Shown here: one piece after another, positions 5,193 through 37,776 of the stretch
Position numbering within the stretch: the stretch's first letter is position 1
How the letters are laid out: each line of letters begins with the position of its first letter
IMG/VR virus record: IMGVR_UViG_3300003323_000915
Span: 13,249 to 77,248 of that record
DNA from: a virus
Strand: one strand, 5' to 3'
Length of the DNA: 64,000 nt
Notes under the pieces: generated by a model
What the model was told of the DNA's origin: nothing
Seen by the model: only the letters and a program-made list of their open reading frames with translations
The model's database searches: none
Translations under genes and position numbers: made by a program

Positions 5193-5996
5193 TTGGAAAA
5201 TAAATTACTATTCAAGCATTCCTGCTTCTCTGGGGATCTCATCTACGCGATGGCTGGCATCAAGGCAATCTGTGAGAACAGCGGGCACAAAGCAGTGATT
5301 TACCAATGGCTTGATCAAAAAGCGCGTATCTATGACGGCGCCGAGCATCCGTACGGAAACTCAATGATGAACCAATACGCGTTCGACATGCTGAAGCCAC
5401 TGATCGAAGCGCAGCCGTACGTAGAAGCATTTCTTCCATGGCAAGGCGAGAAGGTGATGGTCGATCTGGACATGCTTCGCCAAGTGAAATCGCACATGCC
5501 TTATGGCAATATCGTGACGTGGCTGCCGATGGTGTTCGCGGAAATGCGGCCGGAGTATTGGAAGCCTTGGATATCATACGATATTTTCAAGGATAATATA
5601 AGTCCGAAAGCACAAGTAATGAATAGAATTCTTATTAATCGGACTTCCCGATACCAAGGCGCATGGATTGACTATTTCCATCTCAAAAAATACGAAGGGC
5701 AGATGGTGTTCACTGGGACTGAGCAAGAGTACAAAACGTTCAAAGCCGACTGGAATTTAGACTTGCCTTATCTGGAGCTGAAAGATTTCCATCAGCTTGC
5801 CGTGGCAATATCCTCCTGCAAACTTTTCATCGGCAACCAGTCAATGTGCTTCGCTATCGCAGAGGCATTGAAAGTTCCGCGTCTTTTGGAAGTATGCGAC
5901 TTCGCGCCGAACGTGCATCCGTGCGGTGATGGTGGATATTACTTCCGCGTGACAGAGGTGTTTCAGTATTATGTGGATAAACTGATGTCAGAATGA
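5193..5996 (+). CDS. GT9-family (ADP-heptose:LPS heptosyltransferase-like) glycosyltransferase
   Basis: HSCFSGDLIY N-terminal GD motif; LAVAISSCKLFIGNQSMCFAIAEALKVP GT-B C-terminal motif; TTG start. Confidence 0.75.
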   Translation: MENKLLFKHSCFSGDLIYAMAGIKAICENSGHKAVIYQWLDQKARIYDGAEHPYGNSMMNQYAFDMLKPLIEAQPYVEAFLPWQGEKVMVDLDMLRQVKSHMPYGNIVTWLPMVFAEMRPEYWKPWISYDIFKDNISPKAQVMNRILINRTSRYQGAWIDYFHLKKYEGQMVFTGTEQEYKTFKADWNLDLPYLELKDFHQLAVAISSCKLFIGNQSMCFAIAEALKVPRLLEVCDFAPNVHPCGDGGYYFRVTEVFQYYVDKLMSE

Positions 5997-6310
5997 AAAA
6001 GAATACCAAGCAACAAATTGACCACTTACGAATAGCCCTCAGCATGACAGGTCTGGCAGTTAATAATCCTACCTGTGATTTAATCTTGACGGTACAATCA
6101 GAGATGAAGCGCCTAGGTGAAAAATACTCGCTGCGTGATGCCGCCGCTGTTGAGGTGTTTATTGAAAATAAGTATAAACCGAAAACCGAAGATAAAAATG
6201 AACAAGAAAGTATTCTACATGCCCGGCGAAGAACTGACGGAAGAAGAAAAGAAAATTGCTTCCGAGACACTCAAGCAACAACAGGAGAAAACCCAAAAGG
6301 AACTTGCTGA
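5993..6310 (+). CDS. Hypothetical protein
   Basis: ATGA-coupled to the upstream gene; 3' end overlaps groES. Confidence 0.5.
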   Translation: MKKNTKQQIDHLRIALSMTGLAVNNPTCDLILTVQSEMKRLGEKYSLRDAAAVEVFIENKYKPKTEDKNEQESILHARRRTDGRRKENCFRDTQATTGENPKGTC

Positions 6311-6638
6311 TCGCGCCGACGCAACGGCACAAAAAAAATCCACTGTCGATTTCATGAACGTGAATTTTGAGCCGTTCGAAGATCGTATTCTTGTTTATCC
6401 TGATCCGGTGGAGGCAACAACGAAGGGAGGCCTTTACAAGCCTGATGCTGTTATCGAGAAAGCAAAGCCAGTGACCGGAACTGTTGTTAAAGTCGGCCCT
6501 GGTAAACCAAACTTCAAACTCAACATCGTTCCTGGTGATAGGATATCGTACGGGAATTATGCTGGCACATCCATACAATTCGGTGAGATAAATTATCTGA
6601 TCATGCGGTTCGCTGACTGTTTCGGGAAGGTATCATGA
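6198..6638 (+). CDS. groES: Co-chaperonin GroES with N-terminal extension (start uncertain)
   Basis: FEPFEDRILV...TTKGGLYKPD...GTVVKVGPG...GDRISYGNYAGT...YLIMR. Confidence 0.85.
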   Translation: MNKKVFYMPGEELTEEEKKIASETLKQQQEKTQKELADRADATAQKKSTVDFMNVNFEPFEDRILVYPDPVEATTKGGLYKPDAVIEKAKPVTGTVVKVGPGKPNFKLNIVPGDRISYGNYAGTSIQFGEINYLIMRFADCFGKVS

Positions 6639-8077
6639 TTGAACTACCGAAAGTAACGCTCATAGCTATAACCACGCGTGATTACGGATCAACCGTGATG
6701 GCTCTTAAGAAGAGCCTTGAGCACATCAAGCCAGCAGACGTAATTTTATTCACAGACATCGCATTCGAAGATCCAGATTACCGGTGCGTGCTGGTCTCAA
6801 AAATGAACTGGGATGATTATAATCGGTTCGTCTGCACCGAATTATACAAGCACATCAACACCGAATACATCCTTCTGATTCAACATGATGGGTGGGTGCT
6901 CGATGGGGATCAATGGACCGATGACTTCCTGAACTACGACTACATCGGAGCGCCGTGGCTTTACAAGGACACCAGAAATGTCGGCAACGGCGGCTTCTCT
7001 CTGAGATCTCGCAGGCTACACGAAATACTGGCTACCGACAAGCTAATTAACGACAATGACGTCTATTCACCGGAAGATGAGGTCATCTGTCGATTATATC
7101 GTAGTTACCTTGAGAAGAACTACGCGATCCGTTTTGCGCCAGAAGAGCTCGCGCATCAATTCAGTTTTGAATGTCATGCGCCGAAAAGAAAAACGTTTGG
7201 ATTCCATAATTTCTTCCATGAACCATTCAAAGAATTTGTTATTCTGAAGAGGTCACACGCCATGGGTGACATCATTATGATGGAGCCTGTGATGGAGTAC
7301 TTTCACAACAAAGGATATCGTGTCGTGCTCGATGTTCAACCAGAGTATTTCCATCTTTTCCAATACCATCATTATCCTGTTCTGCACATCTCGCAGCTTC
7401 CATCAACTGATGGAATACGCTCTATCAATCTTGACATGTCGTACGAGGTAAAGCCAAAGCAGTTGGTTTTGAGGTCGTACTACGAGACATGCGGAATTAC
7501 CGATGGAGTCCTGCGCAACTCGGTTCTGAATTTTCCAGTCGACGATACAACGCGTCTTTTCAAAAAATACATTGTGTTGCACGTGGATGACACTGGCGTA
7601 CCTCAACGCGACGGATCGCGAAAGGACGGCATTCCCCATCGCGATGTGCATGGAGTTAACTGGGAGCTTGTGATTACATCCCTTGAGGACATGGGATACA
7701 CAGTCATACAGGTTGGTGGCCGAGATGATGGCCGGGTGAAGATGAATACGTCTACGAAGAACATGCTAATGTACCTGATCGCCGGAGCTGACTTTTTTAT
7801 AGGCGTTGATAGCGGGCCAAGTCAAATTGCTGTGAGTTTAGGAATTCGATCAATCATTTTCTTCGGCTCAGTGAATCCTGCATTCCGTTATCGTGATATG
7901 AGTAAAATTCGGGTGATACAAAACCATTGTGATAAGGCCGGGTGCTACCACTCTGTGCTCAGCGTTCGCGGTATTGATTGTGTGTACAATGAAAAGAAGC
8001 CACCATGCATTACGCATACCACGTATTCCGTGCAAGAACAAATAAAGCAACACATTAAATCTTTCGAAAATGAGTGA
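6635..8077 (+). CDS. DUF5672 (GT-A-like) domain fused to a GT9 heptosyltransferase-like domain
   Basis: N-terminal IQHDGW, YDYIGAPW, VGNGGFSLRS. C-terminal RSHAMGDII, FIGVDSGPSQIA, IIFFGS and a 4-Cys cluster. Confidence 0.8.
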   Translation: MIELPKVTLIAITTRDYGSTVMALKKSLEHIKPADVILFTDIAFEDPDYRCVLVSKMNWDDYNRFVCTELYKHINTEYILLIQHDGWVLDGDQWTDDFLNYDYIGAPWLYKDTRNVGNGGFSLRSRRLHEILATDKLINDNDVYSPEDEVICRLYRSYLEKNYAIRFAPEELAHQFSFECHAPKRKTFGFHNFFHEPFKEFVILKRSHAMGDIIMMEPVMEYFHNKGYRVVLDVQPEYFHLFQYHHYPVLHISQLPSTDGIRSINLDMSYEVKPKQLVLRSYYETCGITDGVLRNSVLNFPVDDTTRLFKKYIVLHVDDTGVPQRDGSRKDGIPHRDVHGVNWELVITSLEDMGYTVIQVGGRDDGRVKMNTSTKNMLMYLIAGADFFIGVDSGPSQIAVSLGIRSIIFFGSVNPAFRYRDMSKIRVIQNHCDKAGCYHSVLSVRGIDCVYNEKKPPCITHTTYSVQEQIKQHIKSFENE

Positions 8078-8594
8078 ACAAAAACAATACATGAGTGAAG
8101 CGGCTAAGGTGAGAGATTTGCCAAACGTGATGAAGTATATTACCGGAAGGGTTGCTGACATTGGAGCTGGGCATGATCCGATCACACCAGATTGTATTGC
8201 TTTTGATGGTCGTGATTTGTCAACAATCACTGTGCCTGGTGAGATTTTTATTACCGATGCCCATGGCATGTTTGATACAATTTTTTCATCTCACTTTCTT
8301 GAGCATGTCCCGAATCCAATTAATTACATTTACAATTGGCATCGTCATTTAAACGTTGGAGGTCATGTAGTACTCTATCTGCCAGAAAAAAGTTACTATA
8401 ATAACCACGATAATCCAGAGCATATGTTCAATTGGTCATTCGATGATTTTATGTTTTGGATAAGAAGGTCGGTTTGTGGTGACGGTAAAGATTTTAAAGG
8501 AAATCAGGTTCCAGCCTTGTTTAGTGTCATTGACTCAGGCCTTGATGTTGGTTATGACAAATATTCGTTTTATGTAATCCTAAGAAAATTATAA
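8070..8594 (+). CDS. Class I SAM-dependent methyltransferase
   Basis: VADIGAG, FDTIFSSHFLEH, LNVGG motifs. Confidence 0.8.
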   Translation: MSEQKQYMSEAAKVRDLPNVMKYITGRVADIGAGHDPITPDCIAFDGRDLSTITVPGEIFITDAHGMFDTIFSSHFLEHVPNPINYIYNWHRHLNVGGHVVLYLPEKSYYNNHDNPEHMFNWSFDDFMFWIRRSVCGDGKDFKGNQVPALFSVIDSGLDVGYDKYSFYVILRKL

Positions 8595-8597
8595 TTT

Positions 8598-9488
8598 ATG
8601 CCAACACTCGGAGGAAGCACATTCGTCTACAACGCCATCGCGCAAGACTACAATATCATTGAAACACTGAACTGCCTGTACGACATCTGTGACGAGGTGA
8701 GTGTGGCAATGGGCGGTGACGATGGGACAATTGAACTAATCTGTTCTTGGATTAAAGAGGCAACACTGAAGTCGTCAAAGCCAATTATATCGCAAATAAT
8801 TTCCGAATCAGAATGGAATGAACAACAAGGCCGCGAGAAGCTTTCTTATTTTTCAAATGTAGCAATTGGTAATTTAACGACTGACTACAACCTGTACGTT
8901 CAAGCGGACGAAGTTGTAAGTGAACAATGCATGCCATTCATCCGCCAGGCGATCGAGACCGGCAAGGAGGCATTCATGCTCACCAGAATAAACTGCTGGC
9001 AATCGGCTTACACGATGCTTGCTGTGGCACAGGATCGTAAGCCTTGCAGCACAGAGGTGATTCGTCTTACCAAGACAAAATACCGATGCGTGGATGATGC
9101 TGAGTCGCTGGGTGTGCCGGAGGTATCGTTCGAGTTCACACCGCATATCCGGATATACCATGTTGGATTTGTGCGCGACAAGGATAAGCATTTGACTAAG
9201 ATCTTGCACATGCAAGAGAAAGTGTTCTTATGGGAAGTAGATAAACGCATACACAACAACACCGATGGTTTTGACTGCTGGAAGTGGGGGTTCGATCATC
9301 GAGATGTTATGCCGATAAAAGAAAAGCTGCCGAAGTACATCCGGCAGTGGGCACAAGAAAGACTGGTTCCTCCGTTCAACGATTCCCCTGAAGGAAAAGA
9401 GTACGCGAAAGAATGGGTTAAATACGCGTATCCGGGTCAGGAGTATTCTGAAGATTTGTGGTGGCGATGGGCGAAGAAGTACCAGTGA
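8598..9488 (+). CDS. GT2-like (GT-A fold) glycosyltransferase
   Basis: CDEVSVAMGGDDGT, YVQADE (DxD-like), IYHVGFVR. Confidence 0.7.
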   Translation: MPTLGGSTFVYNAIAQDYNIIETLNCLYDICDEVSVAMGGDDGTIELICSWIKEATLKSSKPIISQIISESEWNEQQGREKLSYFSNVAIGNLTTDYNLYVQADEVVSEQCMPFIRQAIETGKEAFMLTRINCWQSAYTMLAVAQDRKPCSTEVIRLTKTKYRCVDDAESLGVPEVSFEFTPHIRIYHVGFVRDKDKHLTKILHMQEKVFLWEVDKRIHNNTDGFDCWKWGFDHRDVMPIKEKLPKYIRQWAQERLVPPFNDSPEGKEYAKEWVKYAYPGQEYSEDLWWRWAKKYQ

Positions 9489-9663
9489 TATCTTCGTCAT
9501 GTTCAAGACTTTGAATAACATCAACAAGTGATTCGAATTGACTATAGTCTTCTTCCGGATCTGTCGGATTAAAAATGATCTGAATCACGCTCGCTGTGGA
9601 GAAATGTTTTATCGACACATGCTTTCCTGTTATCTCTGCAAAATTGATGTTTTTCCAACTCAT
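9418..9663 (-). CDS. Hypothetical protein
   Basis: 81-aa ORF coupled to the upstream ORF. Confidence 0.45.
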   Translation of the reverse strand: MSWKNINFAEITGKHVSIKHFSTASVIQIIFNPTDPEEDYSQFESLVDVIQSLEHDEDITGTSSPIATTNLQNTPDPDTRI

Positions 9664-9962
9664 ATGTTTGACATTATTAAACTTAAACAGGCAGCTTTTG
9701 CTGATGTGTACTGAATGTCAGTCGCCCACCATGTATTGAAAATCCATTCACTAAACGATCTCTCAATATCCATCTCCGCCGGCAAATCCATATCGCTGTT
9801 TACACTCTGCGTATGATTCAAGGTGGCGTCCATCGCTTCATCATCGTACCATGAATTCGATACAAATCGGACATACGATGCGTCATCAGGAATAATGATC
9901 ACACCTGGCTTTTGATCATTGACGTTTCTCCTTAAAAATGTTTTTCCGTCTCGTGTTATCAT
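9660..9962 (-). CDS. Hypothetical protein
   Basis: ATG at 9962 with an A-rich leader. Confidence 0.55.
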   Translation of the reverse strand: MITRDGKTFLRRNVNDQKPGVIIIPDDASYVRFVSNSWYDDEAMDATLNHTQSVNSDMDLPAEMDIERSFSEWIFNTWWATDIQYTSAKAACLSLIMSNI

Positions 9963-10157
9963 GGCATTGTTTTTTTTAAATAAAAGATAGGGCTTACATG
10001 CAGCACAACCCGGGACCACTCCCTTTTTTTAGACTGCAATGCCTATGTCTTTGATGTCGATTAGTAAGATTTTTTTGTTCTTTAATGATGTATTTTGAGT
10101 TGATCTCCTAAGTTAGATAATTTTCTCATATCAGAAATATTTTGGTATATTTATACT

Positions 10158-11279
10158 GTGAAGTTGATATTGAAAATTAAACTTTTGCCAACTGACGAAC
10201 AGGCTAACTTGCTTATCAATACCATGAAGCAAGCCAATACTGTTTGTAATGCCATCTCTGATGTGGCTTGGCAAGAAAAGATTTTCAATAACCTTAAACT
10301 GCATCACAAAGTTTACCATTATTACAAAAGAAACTTTCAACTTTCTTCCCAAATGCTTATTAGGCAAATAGCTAAAGTTGCTGATGCCTATAAGTTGGAT
10401 AAGAAAACTAAACGCACTTTTAAGCCACTTGGTAGTATTGCTTATGATAGTAGGATAATGACCTACAAATCCAACAATGTAGTTTCCTTGTGGTGTATTG
10501 GTGGTAGAGAAAAGATTAACTTTGTTTGTCATAACCCTTCTTATATTCCTTACATTAAAGGGGAAGCTGATTTGGTTTACAAGAAACGTAAGTTTTACCT
10601 TTTCCAAACTGTTGATGTTCCCGAAGAAGATGTTGATGATATAGAAGAATTTATTGGTTGCGATTTTGGTATAAACTCGATTGTAACTACTTCTGATGGT
10701 GTTGAGCATTCTGCTGATGGGCTTAACGCATACCGTGAACATCGGCAAAGGGTTCGGAGTTCTATTCAAAGCAAAGGCACACGCAATTCTCGCAAGTTGT
10801 TGAAACGGCTTTCTGGCAAAGAAAGGACTCACGCTTCCATTGTTAATCACACTATTGCAAAATTCATTGTTCAATCTGCTAAAGAGCAAGGTATGGGAAT
10901 CGCTTTGGAGGACCTTACTGGCATTCGATTTACGAGCAAAAAGAGAAACAAAAAGTTTCGCACGAAACTTGGTAAATGGAATTTTTCTATGCTTAGACAG
11001 TATATTGAATACAAGGCGTTGCTTAATGGTGTGAAAGTCATAGCTATTGCTCCTGCATATACTTCTCAGACTTGCAGTATTTGCAAACACATTGGAAGAC
11101 GAAATAATAAGCACTTTAAGTGCAACAACTGCGGAAATGATATGGATGCCGATGTTAACGCATCGCTGAATATCGCTACGCTTGGGCGTGCCGTAAATCA
11201 CGCTGGAAGATGGAATGATATGTGCTGTACTGTGCATTCGTTTGCGTCTAAAAACCACCGATATTTAGTTGGTGGGTAG
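10158..11279 (+). CDS. tnpB: TnpB RNA-guided endonuclease (IS200/IS605 family)
   Basis: RuvC-I GCDFG, RuvC-II IALEDL, Zn finger YTSQTCSIC...CNNCG, RuvC-III DADVNAS; all three catalytic residues present. Confidence 0.93.
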   Translation: MKLILKIKLLPTDEQANLLINTMKQANTVCNAISDVAWQEKIFNNLKLHHKVYHYYKRNFQLSSQMLIRQIAKVADAYKLDKKTKRTFKPLGSIAYDSRIMTYKSNNVVSLWCIGGREKINFVCHNPSYIPYIKGEADLVYKKRKFYLFQTVDVPEEDVDDIEEFIGCDFGINSIVTTSDGVEHSADGLNAYREHRQRVRSSIQSKGTRNSRKLLKRLSGKERTHASIVNHTIAKFIVQSAKEQGMGIALEDLTGIRFTSKKRNKKFRTKLGKWNFSMLRQYIEYKALLNGVKVIAIAPAYTSQTCSICKHIGRRNNKHFKCNNCGNDMDADVNASLNIATLGRAVNHAGRWNDMCCTVHSFASKNHRYLVGG

Positions 11280-11304
11280 TTTACTTTAAAACATCATGAA
11301 TACT
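11170..11304 (+). ncRNA. Putative omegaRNA overlapping the tnpB 3' end, with flanking guide
   Basis: Right-end hairpin CCACCGA...TTGGTGG (11255-11275), then GTAGTTTAC ending at 11284; predicted guide begins TTTAAAACATCATG. The 5' limit is a guess. Confidence 0.6.
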
Positions 11305-11309
11305 ATTTG

Positions 11310-12023
11310 TCAAAATTTCTTTATCACATACCCCACGCCAATCGTCGGCTGCACTTGATCTGTCCAGGGCCGCCCATACATAAACGGCAGGTAGCTTACA
11401 CCGATAAACACGCCCCATCGCTTATCGCGGATATTGTCAACCAGTACGTTCGTAGTGCCGGTGATCCTTGAGTTCCTGTTGCTGAATATCGTGGTGCTGT
11501 AATATTTCTCTGTGCCAAACATCCATTTCTTCTTCACCGATATAACTGTCTTTGCCGTGTCCAGGTAATCATAGTCATAATGTGCGTGCAGTGAGTCATA
11601 CACCTTGGCGCGGAATGATAGATAACCATCTGAGACCTTCAAGTTCAAATAGGATCTGTTCACTCCGGCGCTGTCGGTATAATGGTAGTGGTTGACGGTG
11701 GTGTTGCCTTCGCCATGCGCGGAGAATTGGTTTGATATATAGGCGCGCATGTCTTTAAATTTTATATCGAATTGCTTATTGAGATCATCGACTATTTTCG
11801 GATACGCCTGAGCGATCTGTTTTGTCTGCAAAATGGCCGCATCTTTCTCAGCAACAGTTTGTCCGAGTTTGTTGGTATGGTATTTTATGATTGCGTCTTT
11901 CTCGATGGCAGAAGACATAAGATCCTCTGCTTCGTGTTGCTTTTTCTGTAGCCTGTCGAACAGGAATAACGCAAGTAACACAAGTCCTGTGATGATAGCG
12001 ATGTAGGTGAGGTGGATTTTCAT
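11310..12023 (-). CDS. Membrane-anchored protein, putative Bacteroidota-phage spanin-like
   Basis: N-terminal TM, coiled coil, C-terminal KRWGVFIGVSY...IGVGY amphipathic beta strands. Confidence 0.55.
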   Translation of the reverse strand: MKIHLTYIAIITGLVLLALFLFDRLQKKQHEAEDLMSSAIEKDAIIKYHTNKLGQTVAEKDAAILQTKQIAQAYPKIVDDLNKQFDIKFKDMRAYISNQFSAHGEGNTTVNHYHYTDSAGVNRSYLNLKVSDGYLSFRAKVYDSLHAHYDYDYLDTAKTVISVKKKWMFGTEKYYSTTIFSNRNSRITGTTNVLVDNIRDKRWGVFIGVSYLPFMYGRPWTDQVQPTIGVGYVIKKF

Positions 12024-12048
12024 GTGAATAAGGTTAGTAAAAAGGATC

Positions 12049-12249
12049 TCATGATTCGATTATTTTTTCATATCCACGACGCTTCTCAATTATCTCTATG
12101 GAGAGCCATGTGCAATCATACTGGGTTTTCATTTCAAATTTCTGCCCAATGTCTGGAGGAAACATCCCCGTACCGCGTGGGTGACCAGTGTACACGAAGA
12201 CATCGCCTATTTTGATTTCATTAATTGATTTTATCTTAACTGTTTTCAT
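12049..12249 (-). CDS. Hypothetical protein
   Basis: Small ORF in the leftward operon. Confidence 0.5.
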   Translation of the reverse strand: MKTVKIKSINEIKIGDVFVYTGHPRGTGMFPPDIGQKFEMKTQYDCTWLSIEIIEKRRGYEKIIES

Positions 12250-12265
12250 TGGAGTTGTTTTGTAA

Positions 12266-12625
12266 TTAGTTCTTTTGCTTAATATCAAAATATAAATTTT
12301 TCGCCTTCTCGTAGAAATCGCCCATGTTCATCTTTGGATATGGATTTGTTGGTCTATTTTCGATTCCATGACTATAAAACATGTCGTGTATAAAGTCAAG
12401 TAGCTTGTCATTACTGTCCTTCAGTTGATCGCGTTCTTTTTGAAGGGAGTCGATTTCATGTTGAAGGTAATGCATATGCTCGGCATCTGTAATACGCTGA
12501 TCATGATGATCCGACTCCCTTCGTTCAGTTTCCTGTCTCTCGATTCCCCTGGAGATCCACTCACATTCTTCTGGATTAAAGCAATCACGTCCAATGACGC
12601 CACCGCAGCCTTTACATATTCTCAT
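12266..12625 (-). CDS. Hypothetical protein with N-terminal Cys cluster and coiled coil
   Basis: CKGC...C...C followed by heptad repeats. Confidence 0.55.
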   Translation of the reverse strand: MRICKGCGGVIGRDCFNPEECEWISRGIERQETERRESDHHDQRITDAEHMHYLQHEIDSLQKERDQLKDSNDKLLDFIHDMFYSHGIENRPTNPYPKMNMGDFYEKAKNLYFDIKQKN

Positions 12626-12626
12626 A

Positions 12627-14074: not shown

Positions 14075-14653
14075 TTAAAGATGACTTTCGATTAAATGCA
14101 CCAGCACATGAATAACTTTAATGTGCACCTCCTGTATCCTGGCAGCATGTCCAAAATATGGAACAACAATCGCTACGTCCGTGGGCTTGAGTAAGTCCAT
14201 GATCGACCCGCCTTGATTGCCAGTCAAAAATACGACTTTCATTTCTTTGAAGTGGGCAGCACGCACAGCAGTGAACACGTTCTCCGACAGCCCGCTTGTG
14301 CTGATGGCTAGCAGTAAGTCTCCAGGCTTCCCATGCGCCATTATCCAGCGAGCAAACACCGCGGCGTAGCTGTAGTCATTACTCACACAAGTCAAGTGCC
14401 CAGGATCTGATATAGCGATAGCCTCGATAGGGTCACGGTCTCTGTAATACCTGCCGGTTAGCTCGCTGGCGAAGTGCATTGCGTCACTCATAGATCCACC
14501 GTTGCCGCAGGAAATTATTTTCTTGCCAGACTTTATGGCCGTGATCATCGCTGTTGCTGCAAGTTCTATTGCAAGCAGATTGTCCGGGTCGTTGGTGAAT
14601 CGCTGTAGGACTACCTGCGCTTCTTCGAGTTCGGATTGGATGGTGGGTGTCAT
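14075..14653 (-). CDS. gmhA: D-sedoheptulose-7-phosphate isomerase (SIS domain)
   Basis: KIISCGNGGSMSDAMHFASELTGRY, HLTCVSNDY, LLAISTSG.SENV, RIQEVHIKVIH. Confidence 0.93.
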   Translation of the reverse strand: MTPTIQSELEEAQVVLQRFTNDPDNLLAIELAATAMITAIKSGKKIISCGNGGSMSDAMHFASELTGRYYRDRDPIEAIAISDPGHLTCVSNDYSYAAVFARWIMAHGKPGDLLLAISTSGLSENVFTAVRAAHFKEMKVVFLTGNQGGSIMDLLKPTDVAIVVPYFGHAARIQEVHIKVIHVLVHLIESHL

Positions 14654-20008: not shown

Positions 20009-20602
20009 TTATGTAACTATCTGTTTAACAGATTTATTATTTTTCATTATACCATGGTGTTTTAGAAGTTTATATACCACGGGGATACAGATTTCGCATT
20101 CCTCGGCGATGGCGGCAATGGTGGCCTTTGCGTAATACATTTCAATTGCCTTACTGGCTAATTCCTCATTATCAAAAACAGACTTTCGTCCCAATTTGAC
20201 TCCAATTCTCTTTTTATGTGCGAGGGCATTTTTCGTCCGTTCGCTTATCATATTCCTTTCGAATTCCGCGAACACGCCGGCGATCTGGAAAGCCATGCGG
20301 CCAATGGCGGTGGTGGTGTCGAAATTGTCGGAGATCGAAATAAAGGTAGCTTTACGCTTGTCGAATTCGTTTATCAACTCTAATAGATGGCGCAATGATC
20401 GGCCTAGCCTGTCAAGCTTTTGAACAACAACAACGTCCCCCGGCTGAAGATCAGATAAAAGCCTCTCGAGATCTTCACGCTCAGTCTTGGTGCCGGATAT
20501 TTTCTCTTGGTAGATGATCTCACAGCCGTATGTGGTCAGCGCGTGAACTTGGCGACCAAGGTCTTGTTCGGTTGTAGATACTCGTGCGTAACCTCGTTTC
20601 AT
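20009..20602 (-). CDS. Small serine recombinase (resolvase/invertase family)
   Basis: GYARVST catalytic Ser, KLDRLGRS, FAEFERNMISERTK, GVKLGRK, C-terminal HTH. Confidence 0.93.
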   Translation of the reverse strand: MKRGYARVSTTEQDLGRQVHALTTYGCEIIYQEKISGTKTEREDLERLLSDLQPGDVVVVQKLDRLGRSLRHLLELINEFDKRKATFISISDNFDTTTAIGRMAFQIAGVFAEFERNMISERTKNALAHKKRIGVKLGRKSVFDNEELASKAIEMYYAKATIAAIAEECEICIPVVYKLLKHHGIMKNNKSVKQIVT

Positions 20603-20604
20603 GG

Positions 20605-20826
20605 TTATCCGCAAATTATCCAGTAGATCCAAAAACCAAAACACAACGAAAGGAAGAACACCACAACTATTGCCACGAGGCAAAAAACACCCTTCCACCA
20701 TAGGTCAATTTCGTCCTCATGTTTTTTTATTGTGATCGTCTTTCCAATAAAGTAAGGAACGAACACGAACGCCGCAATAATTGCGGGATACATCAGGCTA
20801 ATCCAAATCCGGTATGTCATTTTCAT
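20605..20826 (-). CDS. Two-TM membrane protein
   Basis: Hydrophobic ORF upstream of the recombinase. Confidence 0.5.
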   Translation of the reverse strand: MKMTYRIWISLMYPAIIAAFVFVPYFIGKTITIKKHEDEIDLWWKGVFCLVAIVVVFFLSLCFGFWIYWIICG

Positions 20827-28428: not shown

Positions 28429-28430
28429 AA

Positions 28431-30709: not shown

Positions 30710-30894
30710 TGGAAGAGTTCATCAACCTTGTCCTTCAGATGCGTAACGCGCAGAAAGAATATTTCTTGGCACGTAAGAAAAAAGACGACCGCAAGTCAGC
30801 AATTGCTCTCGTCGACAGTAAGAGCTTTGAGCGACAGGTTGATGACTTCATCGAGAAGTACAAATCGGACAAAAGACAAGCTAAACTTTTTTGA
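30709..30894 (+). CDS. Conserved small phage protein
   Basis: MRNAQKEYF...SKSFERQVD; ends QAKLF. Confidence 0.65.
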   Translation: MEEFINLVLQMRNAQKEYFLARKKKDDRKSAIALVDSKSFERQVDDFIEKYKSDKRQAKLF

Positions 30895-30895
30895 T

Positions 30896-31108
30896 ATGCA
30901 CTTCGAAAACGCATCCAAGGAGTCATGGGTATTATGGCAAAACTCAATGGATAATGAAGACGAGATGCCAGGAGAGCCAGCACTTCTTATTGAGAAATAC
31001 AACGATATTATATCGATTCGTCAGGAAGACCGCTACATCAACATTAATCTCGAAATGATCGATGAATTGTGTAAGCGATTGAAGCAGATCAACAAAGGTT
31101 CGTTATAA
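30896..31108 (+). CDS. Hypothetical protein
   Basis: ATG at 30896. Confidence 0.5.
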   Translation: MHFENASKESWVLWQNSMDNEDEMPGEPALLIEKYNDIISIRQEDRYININLEMIDELCKRLKQINKGSL

Positions 31109-31142
31109 CCTACAGAGAGGCGTTACTTAAACTTTATAACTC

Positions 31143-31553
31143 ATGAACATTCATGATAAGATAAAAGCTGGCGACGATGGTAAATGGCATGTCAGATTTG
31201 AACACACTACTATAGATAAGAATGAACGCAATTTTGGCACAGGTACTACAATATTTTGGCAAACATACCAAAGTGGTTGGGATGCTGTTGAAGGGCTGAT
31301 TAAATATTGCACAGATAAAGACATTCATTTTTCTGATTTCGACCGCGAAGCTTGGTCTAGATACTACTCAGATTATGACAAGTTATTAAGCAGGCAGTCA
31401 ACAATGCAGGAGATGTTGCACGCATTGAAGGATTGCTATATGACGATGTACGGCGGTAACTCTATAAATATCGAAGACGCTATTCGTAGAGCCAAACATG
31501 CAGATGATTTTGAGAACAGGATTATTTCAGTGATTAAAAAAGCAACAGAATGA
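31143..31553 (+). CDS. Hypothetical protein
   Basis: 136-aa ORF. Confidence 0.55.
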   Translation: MNIHDKIKAGDDGKWHVRFEHTTIDKNERNFGTGTTIFWQTYQSGWDAVEGLIKYCTDKDIHFSDFDREAWSRYYSDYDKLLSRQSTMQEMLHALKDCYMTMYGGNSINIEDAIRRAKHADDFENRIISVIKKATE

Positions 31554-31578
31554 CCACCACAGACGAATAATACAAAAC

Positions 31579-31839
31579 ATGACAAACAAAAAATATTTTA
31601 AGATCGCATTTACCATTATCCTGACATTTTCAGCGATAATTATGATGTCATTTGTTGCTGATAGCATGCATGAATTTCTTGGAGACTGGCATTGTAATGG
31701 TGCGGGATGTCATTCTGGATCTGGCGCGCATGATGCAACGTGGCATTGGGGATGGCGGCACTGGATGTTTTTTACATGTGGCTTTTGCCTCTTTATTTTA
31801 AATGTTGTTCGTGTTATAATAATTGCAGACGAAAAATGA
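31579..31839 (+). CDS. Two-TM membrane protein
   Basis: GDWHC...WHWGWRHW between two TM segments. Confidence 0.6.
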   Translation: MTNKKYFKIAFTIILTFSAIIMMSFVADSMHEFLGDWHCNGAGCHSGSGAHDATWHWGWRHWMFFTCGFCLFILNVVRVIIIADEK

Positions 31840-32054
31840 TCAACAAAAAATTCACCGACAGCACCACTGTACGAGAAGCTTGGTATTACCCTGAGAACAA
31901 AGAACTCATTGTTGAGTTCACAACAGGGAAGCGTTACAGCTACGCTGGCGTGCCTGAAGAAATCTGGAACGGATTTATTTCGGCCGCATCCGCTGGAGTT
32001 TACCTATCAAATAAAGTTAAAGGTCAGTATCCGTATAAACTTGTAACAGAATGA
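31836..32054 (+). CDS. KTSC-domain protein
   Basis: ELIVEFTTGKRYSYAGVP...FISAASAGVYL. Confidence 0.85.
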   Translation: MINKKFTDSTTVREAWYYPENKELIVEFTTGKRYSYAGVPEEIWNGFISAASAGVYLSNKVKGQYPYKLVTE

Positions 32055-32338
32055 TGAGCGATCAACAGGCAGCTGCGATGGAGTTCATTAAGCCAGGCTC
32101 TAGTGTGCCCTTTGAGATCAAGATGGATATATTCGCAAAAATATGCAATGATACTAAACGAGCAAGCTTTTACATTACCAAAAATGTAAGAACTCGCAAG
32201 TGGAGAATCCATTTAAGCGGCATCCATAAGGATTTTATAGGAACTGACCTTGTAGCATTGCTTGATGAAGCTGGTCAGTATGTTGTTGATAACACAAAAG
32301 AATCAGAATCACATAATATTTTAATGCCACAAAAATGA
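32051..32338 (+). CDS. Hypothetical protein
   Basis: Coupled ORF. Confidence 0.55.
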   Translation: MMSDQQAAAMEFIKPGSSVPFEIKMDIFAKICNDTKRASFYITKNVRTRKWRIHLSGIHKDFIGTDLVALLDEAGQYVVDNTKESESHNILMPQK

Positions 32339-33558
32339 TCGAAGAAATAACTCTCCCCGTAAAACTCGAACCGATCCTGAAGCAAATCCAGGATAACGTT
32401 CCGTCCATGATCAAAGGCCGCGACGCGGCAGTTGGCGCGATGGAGAAAATCGTTGATGTGAACGACGATAACATTGAAGAAGCAAATAAATTATTAATCC
32501 GGGTTGACGCCACGTATCAGAAGATATACAACATCCGAACAGGAATCACTAAGTCTTTCGATGATGCCAAGGAATTTCTAATGCAGTTCGAAAAAGATCT
32601 TAGTAAGGATAGCAAGTCGAATCATGTACACCGAATCAGGTCTCTTATCGGTGCACATAATCAGAAAAAAATCGACGAAAATAAGCGCGTTCAGGAGCAA
32701 GCACGCATCCAGAAGGGAAAAGAAAACTATAAAGCGGAAATTATCGCTCGGATAAAGAAAAATCTCGCCGACATGGTCATCGAGCGCGTGCGAAAAGTAC
32801 AGGATGGCAGCCGGGATTACTTCAACGCATGCACACTTGATGATTTTGATAAGCGTGCGCAGGTTTTTAAGAGCAATCAGCCAAAATTGAAGACTGAAGA
32901 GTGGTCAAAATGCTTCATGACTGAGATAAACAAGTCTTTGATCACTGATGAAGCGTACGCTGAGCTTTGTCTTGAGCTTCAAAAAGAAGAGACGTACGAA
33001 AAATGGAATGAAACTGTGATCACAGCCATCATGCCGAAAATAAACGAGTGGATCGGGCGAATTCCGGAACTTAAAGACAAGCTTATTGCACTGAAAAACG
33101 CTTCCGATGAAGAAGCGAAGAAGAAATTACTTGCAGAACAGGAGACGAAGGCAAAAAAAGAAGATGAAGAACGTCAGCTTGAGCTCAACGAGATGAAAAA
33201 ATTGAGCGACGAACAAATTGAGCGCGACAAAGAGGTTGAAAAGCTACAAAACGACTTCCGTGAGCAAGCTGTGACGCAAAAACTGGAAGATGCCGGTCCG
33301 GTGAAGCTGCTTTTGAAGTTTAAAGACGAAAAACCAGTGAAGGCGATCACTGAAATGGTGTATCACTGCTTCATGAACGAAAAATTCCCACCGATACAGA
33401 AAAAGAACAAGGCCGGCGAGCTTCAATTTGACGAGCACGGATTCCCGATTTACGTGGACTGGGTTGATACGCTTGTGAAGTTTTTTGTGAAGTATTGTGA
33501 CACTGGAATCAACGGAATTGAGCTTAAGGAAGTGTCACGTGTAATCGTTCGAAAATGA
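32335..33558 (+). CDS. Long coiled-coil protein in the recombination module
   Basis: 407 aa, Lys/Glu-rich helical. Confidence 0.7.
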   Translation: MIEEITLPVKLEPILKQIQDNVPSMIKGRDAAVGAMEKIVDVNDDNIEEANKLLIRVDATYQKIYNIRTGITKSFDDAKEFLMQFEKDLSKDSKSNHVHRIRSLIGAHNQKKIDENKRVQEQARIQKGKENYKAEIIARIKKNLADMVIERVRKVQDGSRDYFNACTLDDFDKRAQVFKSNQPKLKTEEWSKCFMTEINKSLITDEAYAELCLELQKEETYEKWNETVITAIMPKINEWIGRIPELKDKLIALKNASDEEAKKKLLAEQETKAKKEDEERQLELNEMKKLSDEQIERDKEVEKLQNDFREQAVTQKLEDAGPVKLLLKFKDEKPVKAITEMVYHCFMNEKFPPIQKKNKAGELQFDEHGFPIYVDWVDTLVKFFVKYCDTGINGIELKEVSRVIVRK

Positions 33559-33770
33559 TAACCAATGACACCACGGAACTTATCGACACTCATAGATATG
33601 AATTGGAATATGTATACGATAAGGATGTATGGACCGTACCTGTTGTACTAACCACTGAAAGAAGAGAAAAGATGTTAAATGACAATTCAATAAGCAGGGT
33701 TAGGTTTACCCCTATTTTGAGGTATGACGGACTTTTAAGTTTTACGTTTAATCACGCTGATTTAGTGTAA
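33555..33770 (+). CDS. Hypothetical protein
   Basis: Coupled ORF. Confidence 0.45.
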   Translation: MITNDTTELIDTHRYELEYVYDKDVWTVPVVLTTERREKMLNDNSISRVRFTPILRYDGLLSFTFNHADLV

Positions 33771-33771
33771 A

Positions 33772-34368
33772 ATGACCTACTTCGATCATCAATACGTATC
33801 CAACTCCGATCTTAAGGCTATCATCCACAAGACAGAACAGGTACGTGCTGAGCCGGAGAATTTGAAGGATATTTTTGAAGCCGGAACGCTAAATCACCAC
33901 GCGCTTCTTGAGCCACATAAGGCAGACAAAACTCACATTGGATATGTGACGGCAAAGCGAATGGCAGATACGGTTTTGCGAGATGAGATGTGCCGAAAGC
34001 TGATAATGATGCCCGACTTTCGTAGAGAGCACGAATGGTACAAGAAAGATATTTTCGGTTTAGAAGGAGCCAGGTGTAAGACAGATGGAGATAGCAGAAT
34101 GATGTCTACCATCTTCGAGTACAAGGGGCTTTCAATCACAACCGAAAATGGATTTGACAGCGCGATTGAAAATCATGACTACGACCAGTCGGCGTTTTTT
34201 TACTTGAACGTTGTAGGATATAAAAATTACCTCATAGTAGGGGTATCTAAGAAGTCTCCTGATAAATTATTCAAGAGACTCATCGATCGTGATCATCGAT
34301 GGTATTCATCCGGCGGAATAAAGACCGAGAAGGCGATTAAAGCTTGGAAAAATTTTGGATTTGTTTAA
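33772..34368 (+). CDS. PD-(D/E)xK exonuclease (RecE/DUF3799-like)
   Basis: VSNSDLK, GTLNHHALLEP, ARCKTD...FEYK, YDQSAFFY. Confidence 0.75.
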   Translation: MTYFDHQYVSNSDLKAIIHKTEQVRAEPENLKDIFEAGTLNHHALLEPHKADKTHIGYVTAKRMADTVLRDEMCRKLIMMPDFRREHEWYKKDIFGLEGARCKTDGDSRMMSTIFEYKGLSITTENGFDSAIENHDYDQSAFFYLNVVGYKNYLIVGVSKKSPDKLFKRLIDRDHRWYSSGGIKTEKAIKAWKNFGFV

Positions 34369-34380
34369 AAAATAAAAACT

Positions 34381-34779
34381 ATGAGTTTAGGAATTGGGGC
34401 AATGCTGCATTCACTTGGTGGAGGATCAGCACATTCACCAAATGAATACTACGGAAAAGAAATCAGTGATATCAAAATGGATGATAAGTCTTTGTTTATT
34501 GACTTCACCAATTGTGTAAAGATAAGAATATTCGATGATGGACAATCGTGCTGCGAATCAAGATATATGAGAACTGATGACGATATGAGGTCATTGATTG
34601 GCAAGACGCTTGTTTCTATTGAAACTAAAGATGCGCCTGACATCGAGGATGAATACGGAGTACACCAAGTAGTTTTTCTTGAAATAAGAACCAACGATGG
34701 ATGGATTACAATATCAAACCACAATGAACATAATGGTTATTATGGTGGATTTGGACTTTCAATTGAAGAAATAAAATAA
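34381..34779 (+). CDS. Conserved phage hypothetical protein
   Basis: QSCCESRY...NEHNGYYGG. Confidence 0.65.
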   Translation: MSLGIGAMLHSLGGGSAHSPNEYYGKEISDIKMDDKSLFIDFTNCVKIRIFDDGQSCCESRYMRTDDDMRSLIGKTLVSIETKDAPDIEDEYGVHQVVFLEIRTNDGWITISNHNEHNGYYGGFGLSIEEIK

Positions 34780-34784
34780 AAAAT

Positions 34785-35063
34785 ATGATAACACTGAAAA
34801 TTGATGTAATGAAGATTGACAAGACCAAGCTGTTCGAAGGAAAGAATGGCGCAAAGTACCTTGATCTTGTTATAATGGATAGTAAGAATGACAAATACGG
34901 TAACGACTACATGGTTGTTCAGGCTGTCAGTAAAGAAGACCAGGAGAAAGGTGTAAGAGGAAACATTCTTGGCAACGGCAAAAATGTTGGGACGAAGTCA
35001 AGCGGACAATCGTCAGAACAATCATCAAGCAGTAGTTCAAACATTGATGAATTGCCATTCTGA
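34785..35063 (+). CDS. Putative phage single-stranded DNA-binding protein
   Basis: IDVMKIDK...GAKYLD...ILGNGK, Ser-rich linker, DELPF tip. Confidence 0.7.
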   Translation: MITLKIDVMKIDKTKLFEGKNGAKYLDLVIMDSKNDKYGNDYMVVQAVSKEDQEKGVRGNILGNGKNVGTKSSGQSSEQSSSSSSNIDELPF

Positions 35064-35066
35064 CCT

Positions 35067-35486
35067 ATGACAGTATTCTGCGCAGGAACATTCGATTTAC
35101 TTCATGTCGGACACATCAATCTGCTTTTGTTCTGCCGGCAACAAGCCGGGCACAACGGAAAAGTGATTATGTCGATCGATTCGGACAAGAAAATAAAAAA
35201 AGACAAAGGTGATGATCGTCCGATATTCAAGTACACTGACCGATTACTTGCGCTTGAGTCCATCAGATTAAATAATCTTCGTGTTGTTGATTTGGTGATT
35301 GAGCACCCAAGTAATGAATACTTGCTTGATTCAATCAAGCTATACAAACCGGATGCTATAGTCGTTGGTGGAGATTACCAGGACAAAGAAGTGATCGGTA
35401 GTGGCGTATCAAAAGTTATTTACTATCCGCGAGATTACCGGTTCTCGTCCTCCGGAATCATTGAAGCAATAAAACGAAAACTATGA
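35067..35486 (+). CDS. rfaE2: Heptose-1-phosphate nucleotidyltransferase (HldE/RfaE domain II; HldC-type)
   Basis: GTFDLLHVGH, DSDKKIKKDKGDDRP, KPDAIVVGGDY, FSSS. Confidence 0.85.
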   Translation: MTVFCAGTFDLLHVGHINLLLFCRQQAGHNGKVIMSIDSDKKIKKDKGDDRPIFKYTDRLLALESIRLNNLRVVDLVIEHPSNEYLLDSIKLYKPDAIVVGGDYQDKEVIGSGVSKVIYYPRDYRFSSSGIIEAIKRKL

Positions 35487-36352
35487 TCTTCCAAGAACTA
35501 CTCGAAAAAGCGCCGAAGTTGAAGATCGCCGTAATCGGTGATTACATTATCGACAAATATATTTTCGGATCAGTTGACAGGATCAGCCCGGAGGCTCCCG
35601 TGCCCGTAGTTGTACCGAACAGGACATTCACTCGGCCTGGCGGTGCTGGTAATGTTGTAAAAAATCTTCTCAACATCGGAGTCGATGCATATCTGTTTAC
35701 CACCGGAGATCGGTTCCATGAACTTCCACGGGATGTCGTATTTTATCACCCAGGAGAATTTCCGAAAAAAACGCGAGTGATATCCGGCACGCATCACTTA
35801 CTTAGGATGGACGAGGAATCTGTATTTGATGTGGTGTACGATGACGTGCTTTGGAAAGAAGATTTTGAGGTGATATTGAGATCACTCGATGCTGTTGTTT
35901 TTTCCGACTACCACAAAGGAGTAATCAACCCAACTGTGTCGAATACGATCATAGCCATGTGCAACGAGAAGGGGATACCTGTGATTGTGGATGCTAAGAA
36001 AGATTTTGACAAGTACACGAATGCGACGATATTGAAATGCAATCAGAAGGAGGCACAGAATATCAATCCGATAATCGAGCGATCGAATCTGTGCCTAAAT
36101 TATTTTGTGGTGACATGTGGCGAAAATGGCATTTCATGGTTTACCGACTCCGGTAATGGAGTTGATGGCATCCCGGTAGACATTGTTGACGTCTGTGGTG
36201 CCGGCGACACCGTGACAGCCATACTCGCAGCATCATACGCAGCTGGATTCAATATCCAGAAATCAATTACACTCGCCAATATTGCTGCCGCTGAGACATG
36301 CAAGCATATTGGGGTATATCCGATAACGAAAGAAGACTTATTAAGATTATGA
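35483..36352 (+). CDS. rfaE1: Heptose-7-phosphate kinase (HldE/RfaE domain I, PfkB family; HldA-type)
   Basis: VIGDYIIDKY...RISPEAPVPVV, PGGAGNV, SDYHKG, DVCGAGDTV. Confidence 0.92.
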   Translation: MIFQELLEKAPKLKIAVIGDYIIDKYIFGSVDRISPEAPVPVVVPNRTFTRPGGAGNVVKNLLNIGVDAYLFTTGDRFHELPRDVVFYHPGEFPKKTRVISGTHHLLRMDEESVFDVVYDDVLWKEDFEVILRSLDAVVFSDYHKGVINPTVSNTIIAMCNEKGIPVIVDAKKDFDKYTNATILKCNQKEAQNINPIIERSNLCLNYFVVTCGENGISWFTDSGNGVDGIPVDIVDVCGAGDTVTAILAASYAAGFNIQKSITLANIAAAETCKHIGVYPITKEDLLRL

Positions 36353-36464
36353 GCCATTACAGCATTTTCAAGGAAGGCGATCATGTTGAAGTTAATTCAT
36401 GGCACACAAAAATTTATTTGAAAGGGATTCATGGCAAGTTTAACTCTGTAAGTTTTGAAAAGGT

Positions 36465-36677
36465 ATGAAATACACTCTTGTGACGCATCAATTTTCGCTT
36501 TTCGACTACAACGAAATGCGTCCAAAAGTGAAGGTGCCACTTAAGCGCATCAGTAAGGAACGCATGGAGCAGGCGATGATCGAGCATAAAAAAGGAAAAG
36601 ACGGGAAACTTCTGAATGTGCTGCGCGACATAAACGATTCACTTGAACGATACTGTAATAATAAAAATATAAAATGA
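36465..36677 (+). CDS. Hypothetical protein
   Basis: 70-aa ORF containing QFSLF. Confidence 0.5.
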   Translation: MKYTLVTHQFSLFDYNEMRPKVKVPLKRISKERMEQAMIEHKKGKDGKLLNVLRDINDSLERYCNNKNIK

Positions 36678-37408
36678 AGATAACGAAGGCGCGAATAGTA
36701 AGTAAATCGGTAATTGAATTTGATCCAATATTTAAAGATGAATTTTCAATACCTTTTGTTCCACAGGCGTATTTGCAAGGGAGCGGTATCTATAAAATAG
36801 TGAATATTTTTACAGGTGAGATCTATGTAGGTGCTACCAAGAATTTTTACAGGAGACTTATGTCCCACAAGAGTTCAATAGTATCAGGGCACACTAAAAG
36901 TAAAAAACTAACAGAGGCCGCTAAAAAATATGGCATACATAATTTCAATTTTGTAATTATAGAACACACAGAGTTGCGCAATCTGTCTGAACGTGAACAA
37001 TTCTACATAGATTTATTAAAACCACAGTATAACGTAGCTGTGCCTGGAGCCACTAAAAGTGAAGAAACAATAGAAAAGATCAGAAGATCTATTTCGGGCA
37101 TCAAGCATCCGGCATGGAGAAATGAGATAAAAAGAATTGCGCAAACAGGGATTAAGACATCACCACGATCTGAGATTGGAAAGATTAACATGTCCAACGC
37201 TCAGAAAAAATTGCATAGTAGCGGCTACAAAAGCCCAAGATCAAAAGCTGTATTACAATATGATCAATCTGGAAATTTTATCCGAGAATACTATAGTGCG
37301 TCAGAAGCCGGTAGACATATTGGCGTTACTGGTGATGCGGTGACTGCGAATGCAACAGGCAGAAATAGGACATGTCAAGGGTTTGTATTTAAATACAAAA
37401 TACAATGA
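36674..37408 (+). CDS. GIY-YIG homing endonuclease with NUMOD DNA-binding repeats
   Basis: SGIYKIVN...YVG...RRLMSH, EREQFYID, SEETIEKI, KAVLQYD...SASEA. Confidence 0.88.
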   Translation: MKITKARIVSKSVIEFDPIFKDEFSIPFVPQAYLQGSGIYKIVNIFTGEIYVGATKNFYRRLMSHKSSIVSGHTKSKKLTEAAKKYGIHNFNFVIIEHTELRNLSEREQFYIDLLKPQYNVAVPGATKSEETIEKIRRSISGIKHPAWRNEIKRIAQTGIKTSPRSEIGKINMSNAQKKLHSSGYKSPRSKAVLQYDQSGNFIREYYSASEAGRHIGVTGDAVTANATGRNRTCQGFVFKYKIQ

Positions 37409-37776
37409 AAATAGCTATTGATGTAGATAGTACGATCGTGTTTAACCAGTATCCGTATTTCGGTGACTCAGTCCCAAATGTCGAAAAAGTATTAAAGCGA
37501 ATTATTACTGCCGGACATGAAATAATAATTCTGACAATGAGAGATGGCAGATTGCTGGACGATGCAGTTGAATGGTTTTTAAAGAATAGCATACCAGTTA
37601 AGTACATTAATTGCAACCCAGAGTTTGAGACTGGATCAAGAAAGGTGTACGCAAATCTATACATCGATGACCATAATCTCGGCATTCCACTTATTCATAA
37701 CTACGAAGTACATCCAAAACCATTCGTTGACTGGCTTGCAGTTGAAAAAATATTGGAAGCAAAAGGATATTTATGA
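37405..37776 (+). CDS. Capless HAD-superfamily phosphatase (BT0820-like)
   Basis: IAIDVDSTI (DxD), ILTMR, RKVYANLYIDDHN. Confidence 0.8.
   Translation: MKIAIDVDSTIVFNQYPYFGDSVPNVEKVLKRIITAGHEIIILTMRDGRLLDDAVEWFLKNSIPVKYINCNPEFETGSRKVYANLYIDDHNLGIPLIHNYEVHPKPFVDWLAVEKILEAKGYL

Follow-up and report, generated by a model that had tools for sequence, protein, structure and literature searches.

The window analysed here, a stretch of 64,000 nucleotides corresponding to bases 13249-77248 of the IMG/VR record IMGVR_UViG_3300003323_000915, belongs to a phage genome with a record length of 77,248 bp, rated as complete by CheckV. It encodes a predicted complete set of enzymes for the synthesis of ADP-heptose, namely the isomerase GmhA, an HldA-type kinase, a HAD phosphatase and an HldC-type nucleotidyltransferase, together with a cassette of glycosyltransferases (GTs) comprising two proteins of the GT9 fold. 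An earlier note on this DNA, made from the letters alone, had proposed that the phage makes and transfers its own heptose; the synthesis set and the two GT9 folds agree with this proposal, the link between pathway and GTs being one that we infer. Tentatively, and with somewhat less than even confidence, we favour the reading that the donor is made by the phage and that the acceptor is a protein.

All six genes named in the earlier note are open frames at the positions collected in Table 1 and every identification holds. The hidden Markov model (HMM) searches it had suggested returned matches for SIS_2/GmhA, rfaE domains I and II and Glyco_transf_9, the GT of 267 amino acids (aa) being recognised by structure instead. 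Regarding the first step, gmhA lies in the leftward early operon, where it overlaps the upstream gene by 4 nt, and its product matches SIS_2 of Pfam at E 1e-22; residues 4-191 align in the PDB with GmhA from V. cholerae (1x94, E 3e-58) and from E. coli (E 8e-56). Its NCBIfam scores, though close, stay under the cut-offs (231 vs. 265 bits for NF001628 and 185.5 vs. 209 for TIGR00441). In the HMMER alignment to 2i22, the equivalents of E65 and H180 are kept, that is Glu65 and His180 in E. coli numbering, which we take to be the catalytic residues of GmhA. The nucleotidyltransferase gene, whose 3' end overlaps the start of the kinase gene by 4 nt, encodes a protein matching CTP_transf_like (51 bits) and carrying the HxGH motif as HVGH; its top NCBIfam family is rfaE_dom_II (TIGR02199; 73 bits vs. 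a cut-off of 181), and since a glycerol-3-phosphate cytidylyltransferase family scores almost as high (56 bits), its specificity cannot be read from the sequence. The kinase matches PfkB (73 bits) and, as its top family, rfaE_dom_I (TIGR02198; 215 bits, under the cut-off of 345), its GAGD motif (G239-A240-G241-D242) is invariant and its single sequence match in the PDB is the HldA of Burkholderia (E 1.5e-28); HldC 5x9q and HldA 4e84 stand among the top PDB matches of the phage transferase and kinase. As for the HAD phosphatase, a protein of 123 aa with invariant DxDxT and DD motifs, it matches the BT0820 family (NF046079) with 73 bits and the PDB entry 2obb, without known function itself, at E 1e-14. 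With intact HAD motifs, strict co-occurrence and adjacency with the kinase, it may be an analogue of GmhB doing the same job.

The HldD epimerase, of which the earlier note had seen no sign in the window, is lacking from the whole 77-kb genome as judged by a search with PF01370; neither this genome nor its three closest relatives hold any NAD-dependent epimerase, and two other relatives do carry one. In its logic, the set resembles the split HldA/HldC pathway of bacteria of the Burkholderia and Neisseria type, with GmhA, a PfkB-type kinase for the beta-anomer and an adenylyltransferase of the cytidylyltransferase fold, and differs from it in assigning the GmhB step to a BT0820-type capless HAD, in doing without HldD and in being spread over two phage operons. 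The ADP-heptose pathway of E. coli was reportedly described by Kneidinger et al. in 2002.

The nucleotidyltransferase, kinase and HAD genes form one module. The last two are immediate neighbours in one relative, and in two others only small open reading frames (ORFs) intervene; in this phage, a conserved 70-aa ORF without PHROG match and a GIY-YIG homing endonuclease gene, which lies outside the pathway and has no homologue in the same region of the relatives G001-G003, stand between them. Because this split by the endonuclease is specific to this phage, the pathway occupies two loci and not three; the "three operons" over which it was first said to be dispersed amount to these two synthesis loci plus the GT cassette. 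Two genes beyond the GIY-YIG gene, an HNH/NUMOD4 endonuclease is encoded at window positions 37994-38524.

Both proteins earlier ascribed to GT9, the 267-aa GT and the 480-aa GT, have this fold by their models. The former and 57 of its homologues have no match in Pfam, NCBIfam or PHROGs, and its family, which numbers 1955 representative clusters, gives only chance-level matches as a profile against the PDB. With its AlphaFold model, the top ten Foldseek matches in the PDB are all GT9 enzymes (WaaF at 3e-8, WaaC, TibC), with WaaF and WaaC the best, and the G14-D15 pair is invariant in the family. Compared with each other by BLASTP, the two GTs gave no significant match, and single-sequence PDB searches with both returned nothing useful.

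The 480-aa GT matches DUF5672 with 78 bits and Glyco_transf_9 with 27.1 bits vs. a cut-off of 22, only 43 residues being aligned in the latter case. Its model, with a predicted local distance difference test score (pLDDT) of 89, has two domains, namely a GT-A domain (aa 4-195) and a GT-B domain of the GT9 type (aa 199-480). The first resembles BoGT6a (Z 13.0), glycogenin (12.3) and PBCV-1 A64R (11.8), GT6 and GT8 enzymes scoring Z 12-13; on this model a GT-A fold is assigned to DUF5672, a Pfam entry without functional description for which literature searches gave annotation-level mentions only. A stand-alone DUF5672 gene was also observed in a polysaccharide cluster of Sphingomonas arvum (L149:5147-15811), together with KpsF-like and KdsB-like genes, two GT2 and one GT1. 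The second domain is closest to TibC (Z 21.6, root mean square deviation 3.0 over 263 residues), followed by WaaF (20.2) and WaaC (18.7), with 3tov also in the range Z 18-22, and a profile built from 32 homologues of the 480-aa GT likewise places TibC first in the PDB (E 0.002; WaaC 0.44).

TibC heptosylates proteins with a donor preference for ADP-D,D-heptose, and its iron finger is made of Cys339/342/358/370 (PMC4358343). In the homologues of the 480-aa GT, the invariant positions include D212 of the GD motif, D392-S393-G394 of the DSG motif, and C432, C437, H439, C449 and C458, these last five forming a Cys4/His cluster after the last strand and ahead of the C-terminal helix, where TibC has its iron finger; the Cys spacing differs, and model confidence in this part is low. 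The likeness to TibC and Aah (the BAHT family; PDB 4rap, 4rb4) lies in the candidate catalytic Asp of the N-terminal GD motif, in the Cys4 cluster ahead of the C-terminal helix, a candidate counterpart of the iron finger, and in the donor, since the D,D form preferred by TibC is the product this phage would make. Unlike TibC, it has a GT-A domain in place of the beta-barrel, and D392 of the DSG motif resembles WaaC rather than TibC. By sequence, the 480-aa protein is outside the BAHT family.

Around these two enzymes, the cassette holds a gene for a GroES/Cpn10-like co-chaperonin, whose true start is probably an internal Met near 6198, one for a putative sugar methyltransferase and, at its end, one for a 296-aa GT2-like protein. 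This last has no direct Pfam match; its viral look-alike clusters in the ESM Atlas score 0.98 with a TM of 0.74-0.78, and PF00535 is found in 39-41% of their members. In total, four GT domains including the GT2-like protein are present, plus the methyltransferase. Homologues of the compact GT9 are found fused to TylF, FkbM or Methyltransf_23 methyltransferases, to GT2, or to GT9 and DUF5672, and homologues of the 480-aa type occur fused with a methyltransferase. Because homologues of the cassette parts are fused together in so many combinations, the cassette looks like one machine, which would build a methylated oligosaccharide. Just upstream of it, a second GroES/Cpn10 gene is divergently oriented (4036-4782, minus strand); both GroES/Cpn10 proteins have a C-terminal Cpn10 domain and a long N-terminal extension.

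Table 1. Coordinates in the window, strand and supporting matches of the synthesis genes, the GT cassette and the ORFs lying within the synthesis module.
Feature	Position	Strand	Support
gmhA, sedoheptulose-7-phosphate isomerase (step 1)	14075..14653	-	SIS_2, NF001628, structure 1x94, phrog_14703
HldA-type kinase	35483..36352	+	PfkB, rfaE_dom_I, HldA 4e84, phrog_8133
Small capless HAD phosphatase, proposed heptose-1,7-bisphosphate 7-phosphatase (step 3)	37405..37776	+	BT0820-family, 2obb, phrog_1238
HldC-type heptose-1-phosphate nucleotidyltransferase (step 4)	35067..35486	+	CTP_transf_like, rfaE_dom_II, phrog_7878, HxGH
Compact 267-aa GT9-fold GT, TTG start	5193..5996	+	Foldseek, pLDDT 95.5
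Bifunctional 480-aa GT, DUF5672 GT-A + GT9 GT-B	6635..8077	+	Pfam, model, structure matches
GroES/Cpn10-like co-chaperonin within the cassette	6117..6638	+	Cpn10 61 bits; phrog_3188
S-adenosylmethionine-dependent methyltransferase, probable sugar O-methyltransferase	8070..8594	+	Methyltransf_23
GT2-like GT-A protein, 296 aa, final cassette gene	8598..9488	+	ESM Atlas look-alikes
Conserved 70-aa ORF between kinase and HAD	36465..36677	+	Homologues of 60-67% identity, likewise placed, in G001 and G003
GIY-YIG homing endonuclease inside the module, outside the pathway	36674..37408	+	TIGR01453 102 bits

The co-occurrence of these genes across related phages, which the earlier note had wished to see checked, was followed in 22 IMG/VR records chosen for carrying the 480-aa GT, 11 of which are complete genomes; in all, this GT is borne by roughly 5,000 contigs. 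Kinase, transferase and HAD are inherited all-or-none, with the three together in 5 records and none of them in the other 17; gmhA accompanies them in four of the five, the fifth record being an 85%-complete provirus. Among complete genomes, the pathway is found in 4 of 11, namely this phage and its three closest relatives. Of the 22 records, 18 contain the 267-aa GT, which makes the cassette (18-22 of 22) far commoner than the pathway (5 of 22). Most likely, the cassette is an old, lineage-wide part and the synthesis genes an add-on of one subclade. Across the four genomes, identity is 38-62% for the proteins of the pathway and 52-57% for the GT; this divergence, about equal to that of the phage's own GT gene, speaks for an old acquisition, in keeping with the long domestication proposed earlier, and points to a single event followed by vertical descent. 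A coordinate comparison of this phage with G001 further shows agreement in the relative positions of gmhA, the nucleotidyltransferase-kinase-HAD module and the 267-aa GT. A chimeric assembly, raised beforehand as a possible artefact, is refuted by three relatives with direct terminal repeats that hold all the pathway and GT genes, spaced in matching proportions.

The module is less novel than was claimed for it, as it is annotated in cyanomyophages, to which the kinase gives tblastn matches, and is common in IMG/VR. In P-SSM2 (PSSM2_307-PSSM2_311), S-SSM7, S-CAM1 and S-T4, a module of so-called lipopolysaccharide (LPS) genes has the order transferase, kinase and a gene of ~110 aa called "phosphoheptose isomerase", that is phrog_7878, phrog_8133 and phrog_1238 as in this phage, whose nucleotidyltransferase is 38% identical to PSSM2_309 of P-SSM2. 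The likeness extends to a GT9-like gene near the module (phrog_8954, two genes upstream in P-SSM2 and S-CAM1) and, in S-T4, to a methyltransferase. However, phrog_8954 is a different family from the GTs of this phage, the cyanophage modules contain carbamoyltransferase, cupin and epimerase genes, and the cyanophages are myoviruses of cyanobacteria with genomes of 180-250 kb, to be compared with 77 kb and a probable Bacteroidota host here. The search of cyanophage and marine records yielded no gmhA.

While labelled "phosphoheptose isomerase", the members of phrog_1238 are HAD phosphatases of ~110-125 aa with DxDxT and not SIS-fold isomerases. Their second-best PHROG is polynucleotide kinase (e.g. 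L081:5719-6063 and L083:5667-6002), an enzyme that bears a HAD-type phosphatase domain. Because they belong to the same family as the HAD of this phage and have this second match, the label, which has spread to cyanophage genomes, is by sequence a mis-annotation. Overall, relatives of the kinase are encoded on at least 539 IMG/VR contigs. Of the best 80 of these kinase loci, 78 have the transferase adjoining the kinase, 15 a GT9-like gene no further than 10 kb from it and 3 an adjoining gmhA. An alternative arrangement of the pathway is seen in the contigs L206, L211 and L241, where gmhA stands directly beside the kinase, itself followed downstream by the transferase.

The host is likely a member of the Bacteroidota, because full-length homologues of the 480-aa GT lie on contigs binned into metagenome-assembled genomes (MAGs) of Chitinophagaceae and Cyclobacteriaceae, two of these contigs being of ~78 kb. 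With the terminases of Flavobacterium and Cellulophaga podophages, the large terminase shares only 25% identity. Host-type heptose kinases (300-378 bits) were found in 27 of the 40 other genomes from the family of the Cyclobacteriaceae MAG and in 34 of 41 from that of the Chitinophagaceae MAG; by such counts, the host supply of ADP-heptose is common but patchy. In the Cyclobacteriaceae MAG with a pathway-bearing phage contig, the sole strong kinase match lies on that phage contig; in the Chitinophagaceae MAG with a full-length 480-aa GT homologue on a 78-kb contig, the sole kinase match is on another contig with a host-type score. These two cases, which are anecdotes relying on binning, fit a model of phage self-sufficiency.

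In the scheme that we favour, where we infer the enzymatic activities, the GT9 donor and the acceptor, GmhA, the HldA-type kinase, the small HAD in place of GmhB and the HldC-type nucleotidyltransferase would carry out the steps of synthesis, and since there is no HldD the product would remain in the D,D form. This ADP-D,D-heptose would most likely feed a soluble, cytoplasmic glycan-building cassette, in which the compact GT9, the fusion of GT-A and TibC-like GT9, the methyltransferase and the GT2-like enzyme are put to use, and the synthesis genes would free the phage from the patchy supply of ADP-heptose in the candidate Bacteroidota families. The acceptor would most likely be a phage protein, with Ser/Thr-rich fibres as candidates for O-glycosylation prior to assembly, on the model of the heptosylation of autotransporters by TibC and Aah.

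A protein acceptor is supported by the first rank of TibC in both profile and structure comparisons, by the presence among the weaker GT-A matches of PBCV-1 A64R, a viral enzyme glycosylating the capsid, by the Cys4/His cluster as a candidate iron finger, by the preference of TibC for the D,D donor, by the GroES gene embedded in the cassette and by the near-universality of this cassette in a lineage whose records mostly bear no provirus flag. The lack of a thymidylate-synthase-type hydroxymethylase points the same way. Two fibre-like proteins of 2131 aa (52235-58630) and 447 aa (58784-60127), without any Pfam domain, have a Ser+Thr content of 25-26% vs. ~10% elsewhere, and ~12% Gly. In the 2131-aa protein, a segment of ~35 aa appears by eye to be repeated at about residues 1330-1400 and 1501-1545; a BLASTP self-comparison of this protein listed no internal repeat. 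With PBCV-1 A064R, this phage shares soluble viral GT domains and a sugar methyltransferase, a probable one here, with A64R domain 1 matching the DUF5672 domain at Z 11.8. In contrast, virion glycosylation in PBCV-1 and mycobacteriophages involves other sugars, no GT9 enzyme and no heptose synthesis. Glycosylation of mycobacteriophage capsids is said to have been described by Freeman et al. in 2023. Extended to its widest form, namely a widespread lineage of ~60-85-kb Bacteroidota-associated phages endowed with a virus-encoded machine for protein O-heptosylation, placing a methylated heptose glycan on fibres, with one subclade self-sufficient in ADP-D,D-heptose, the proposal is conceivable but doubtful.

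Several observations weigh against phage-made heptose destined for a phage protein. Every pathway HMM score is under the curated equivalog cut-off, and the HAD has no match to a GmhB model at E <= 0.01, which places it outside the GmhB family. In 7 of the 11 complete relatives the cassette is present and the pathway is not, meaning that the two need not go together. TibC outscores WaaF by little (Z 21.6 vs. 20.2), the TibC beta-barrel is absent from the 480-aa GT, where the DUF5672 GT-A domain occupies the N-terminus, and only some of the sugar-contact residues of TibC are kept: in the profile alignment Thr226 is conserved, Lys230 aligns with His beside a consensus Arg, P300 with Asp and Trp305 (W305) with Gln, while Arg286 falls within the span aligned. 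Besides, Ser/Thr-rich fibres are common among phages and prove nothing, the host assignment depends on the binning of MAGs, and no paper characterising a phage heptose pathway was found in the literature.

The main rival is a remodelling of the host envelope, a possibility that we consider rather unlikely. The GT9 enzymes would then work on the inner side of the membrane, as WaaC, WaaF or WaaQ do, with the donor supplied by the phage, adding heptose and methylated sugars to the LPS or lipooligosaccharide core or to a lipid-linked glycan, either to mask receptors against superinfection or to keep the integrity of the envelope until lysis. Most characterised GT9 enzymes are indeed heptosyltransferases of the LPS core, WaaF and WaaC score near TibC and are the best matches of the 267-aa GT, D392 in the DSG motif is WaaC-like and the stand-alone DUF5672 gene of S. 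arvum belongs to a Kdo-type polysaccharide cluster. On the other hand, TibC ranks first by profile and structure, and the Cys4 cluster sits at the position of the TibC iron finger, a feature that WaaC and WaaF are not known to have. Among the phage ORFs scanned, no membrane-associated or lipid-carrier enzyme was recognised; moreover, near-universality in records that mostly bear no provirus flag is to be expected of an essential virion function more than of an exclusion moron. The LPS genes of cyanophages have been interpreted in the sense of envelope remodelling (PMC9529941), published surveys dealing with viral heptosyltransferase and LPS genes at the annotation level only (PMC9529941, PMC10747093).

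Less probable still is that pathway and cassette are unrelated, the former being an auxiliary module that tops up or redirects the heptose and pentose-phosphate metabolism of the host and the GT9 enzymes using some other host-made donor. Distances of 9-28 kb and a difference in strand separate the loci, most relatives carry the cassette without the pathway and two hold an NAD-dependent epimerase instead; besides, GT9 of CAZy includes a GlcNAc-transferase activity. Nonetheless, a GT9-like gene accompanies the nucleotidyltransferase-kinase-HAD genes in the unrelated cyanomyophages and in 15 of the 80 viral loci, and since ADP-heptose is often made by the candidate host families, it stays available to phages lacking the pathway. 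Glycosylation of the DNA, where a heptose glycan on a modified phage base would protect from restriction, is highly improbable: while phage GTs reportedly build glycans on hydroxymethylated bases, as Pyle et al. are said to have described in 2024, the complete genome yielded no thymidylate-synthase-type hydroxymethylase, the ORFs scanned include no recognisable DNA polymerase or other base-modification gene, and phage DNA glucosyltransferases are absent from the listed structural matches.

Since the first cyanomyophage genomes, the heptose-activation genes of phages have figured among the auxiliary "LPS" genes, and no paper testing them was found. If true, the heptosylation of a phage protein would be the first protein heptosylation known beyond bacterial autotransporters and would give a function to these long-unexplained cyanophage genes; should the TibC-like reading hold, the role of many such genes would lie in virion glycosylation instead of host LPS, with a bearing on adsorption, stability and recognition. 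With four synthesis genes and their likely consumers in 77 kb, this phage offers a compact, complete and testable case. At a more practical level, the label of phrog_1238 is corrected, DUF5672 is given a GT-A fold by modelling and a large GT9-fold family missed by Pfam, NCBIfam and PHROGs is defined. The sole sequencing run found to contain the window is a DNA run from a root metagenome, possibly the source sample, with no RNA run listed; the earlier remark that ADP-heptose is the ligand of vertebrate ALPK1 has no bearing on a phage of such origin.

As for the rest of the genome, the ORFs scanned include a primase-helicase, RecT, a PD-(D/E)XK nuclease, a helicase and a small serine recombinase; no tRNA gene was found. 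Pfam gave no match for the fibre and virion proteins nor for most early genes, and a nucleotide search of a phage collection with two pieces of the window returned no match. The palindrome GTAACAWWTGTTAC (GTAACA-WW-TGTTAC) occurs at four sites vs. 0.05 expected, all of them intergenic (window positions 4797, 19970, 21316 and 40070); considered as a link between the GT cassette and the heptose genes, it was rejected, no site lying directly 5' of either. The small serine recombinase (20009-20701, minus strand; Resolvase N-terminal domain, 154 bits) is encoded in the early leftward operon of a genome that shows no other sign of lysogeny, one relative being a provirus according to IMG/VR. Upstream of the window, at genome positions 993-5093, a protein of 1366 aa has a weak, below-cut-off match to the C-terminal domain of the crAss-virus muzzle protein, a hint of remote structural relatedness to crAss-like podophages.

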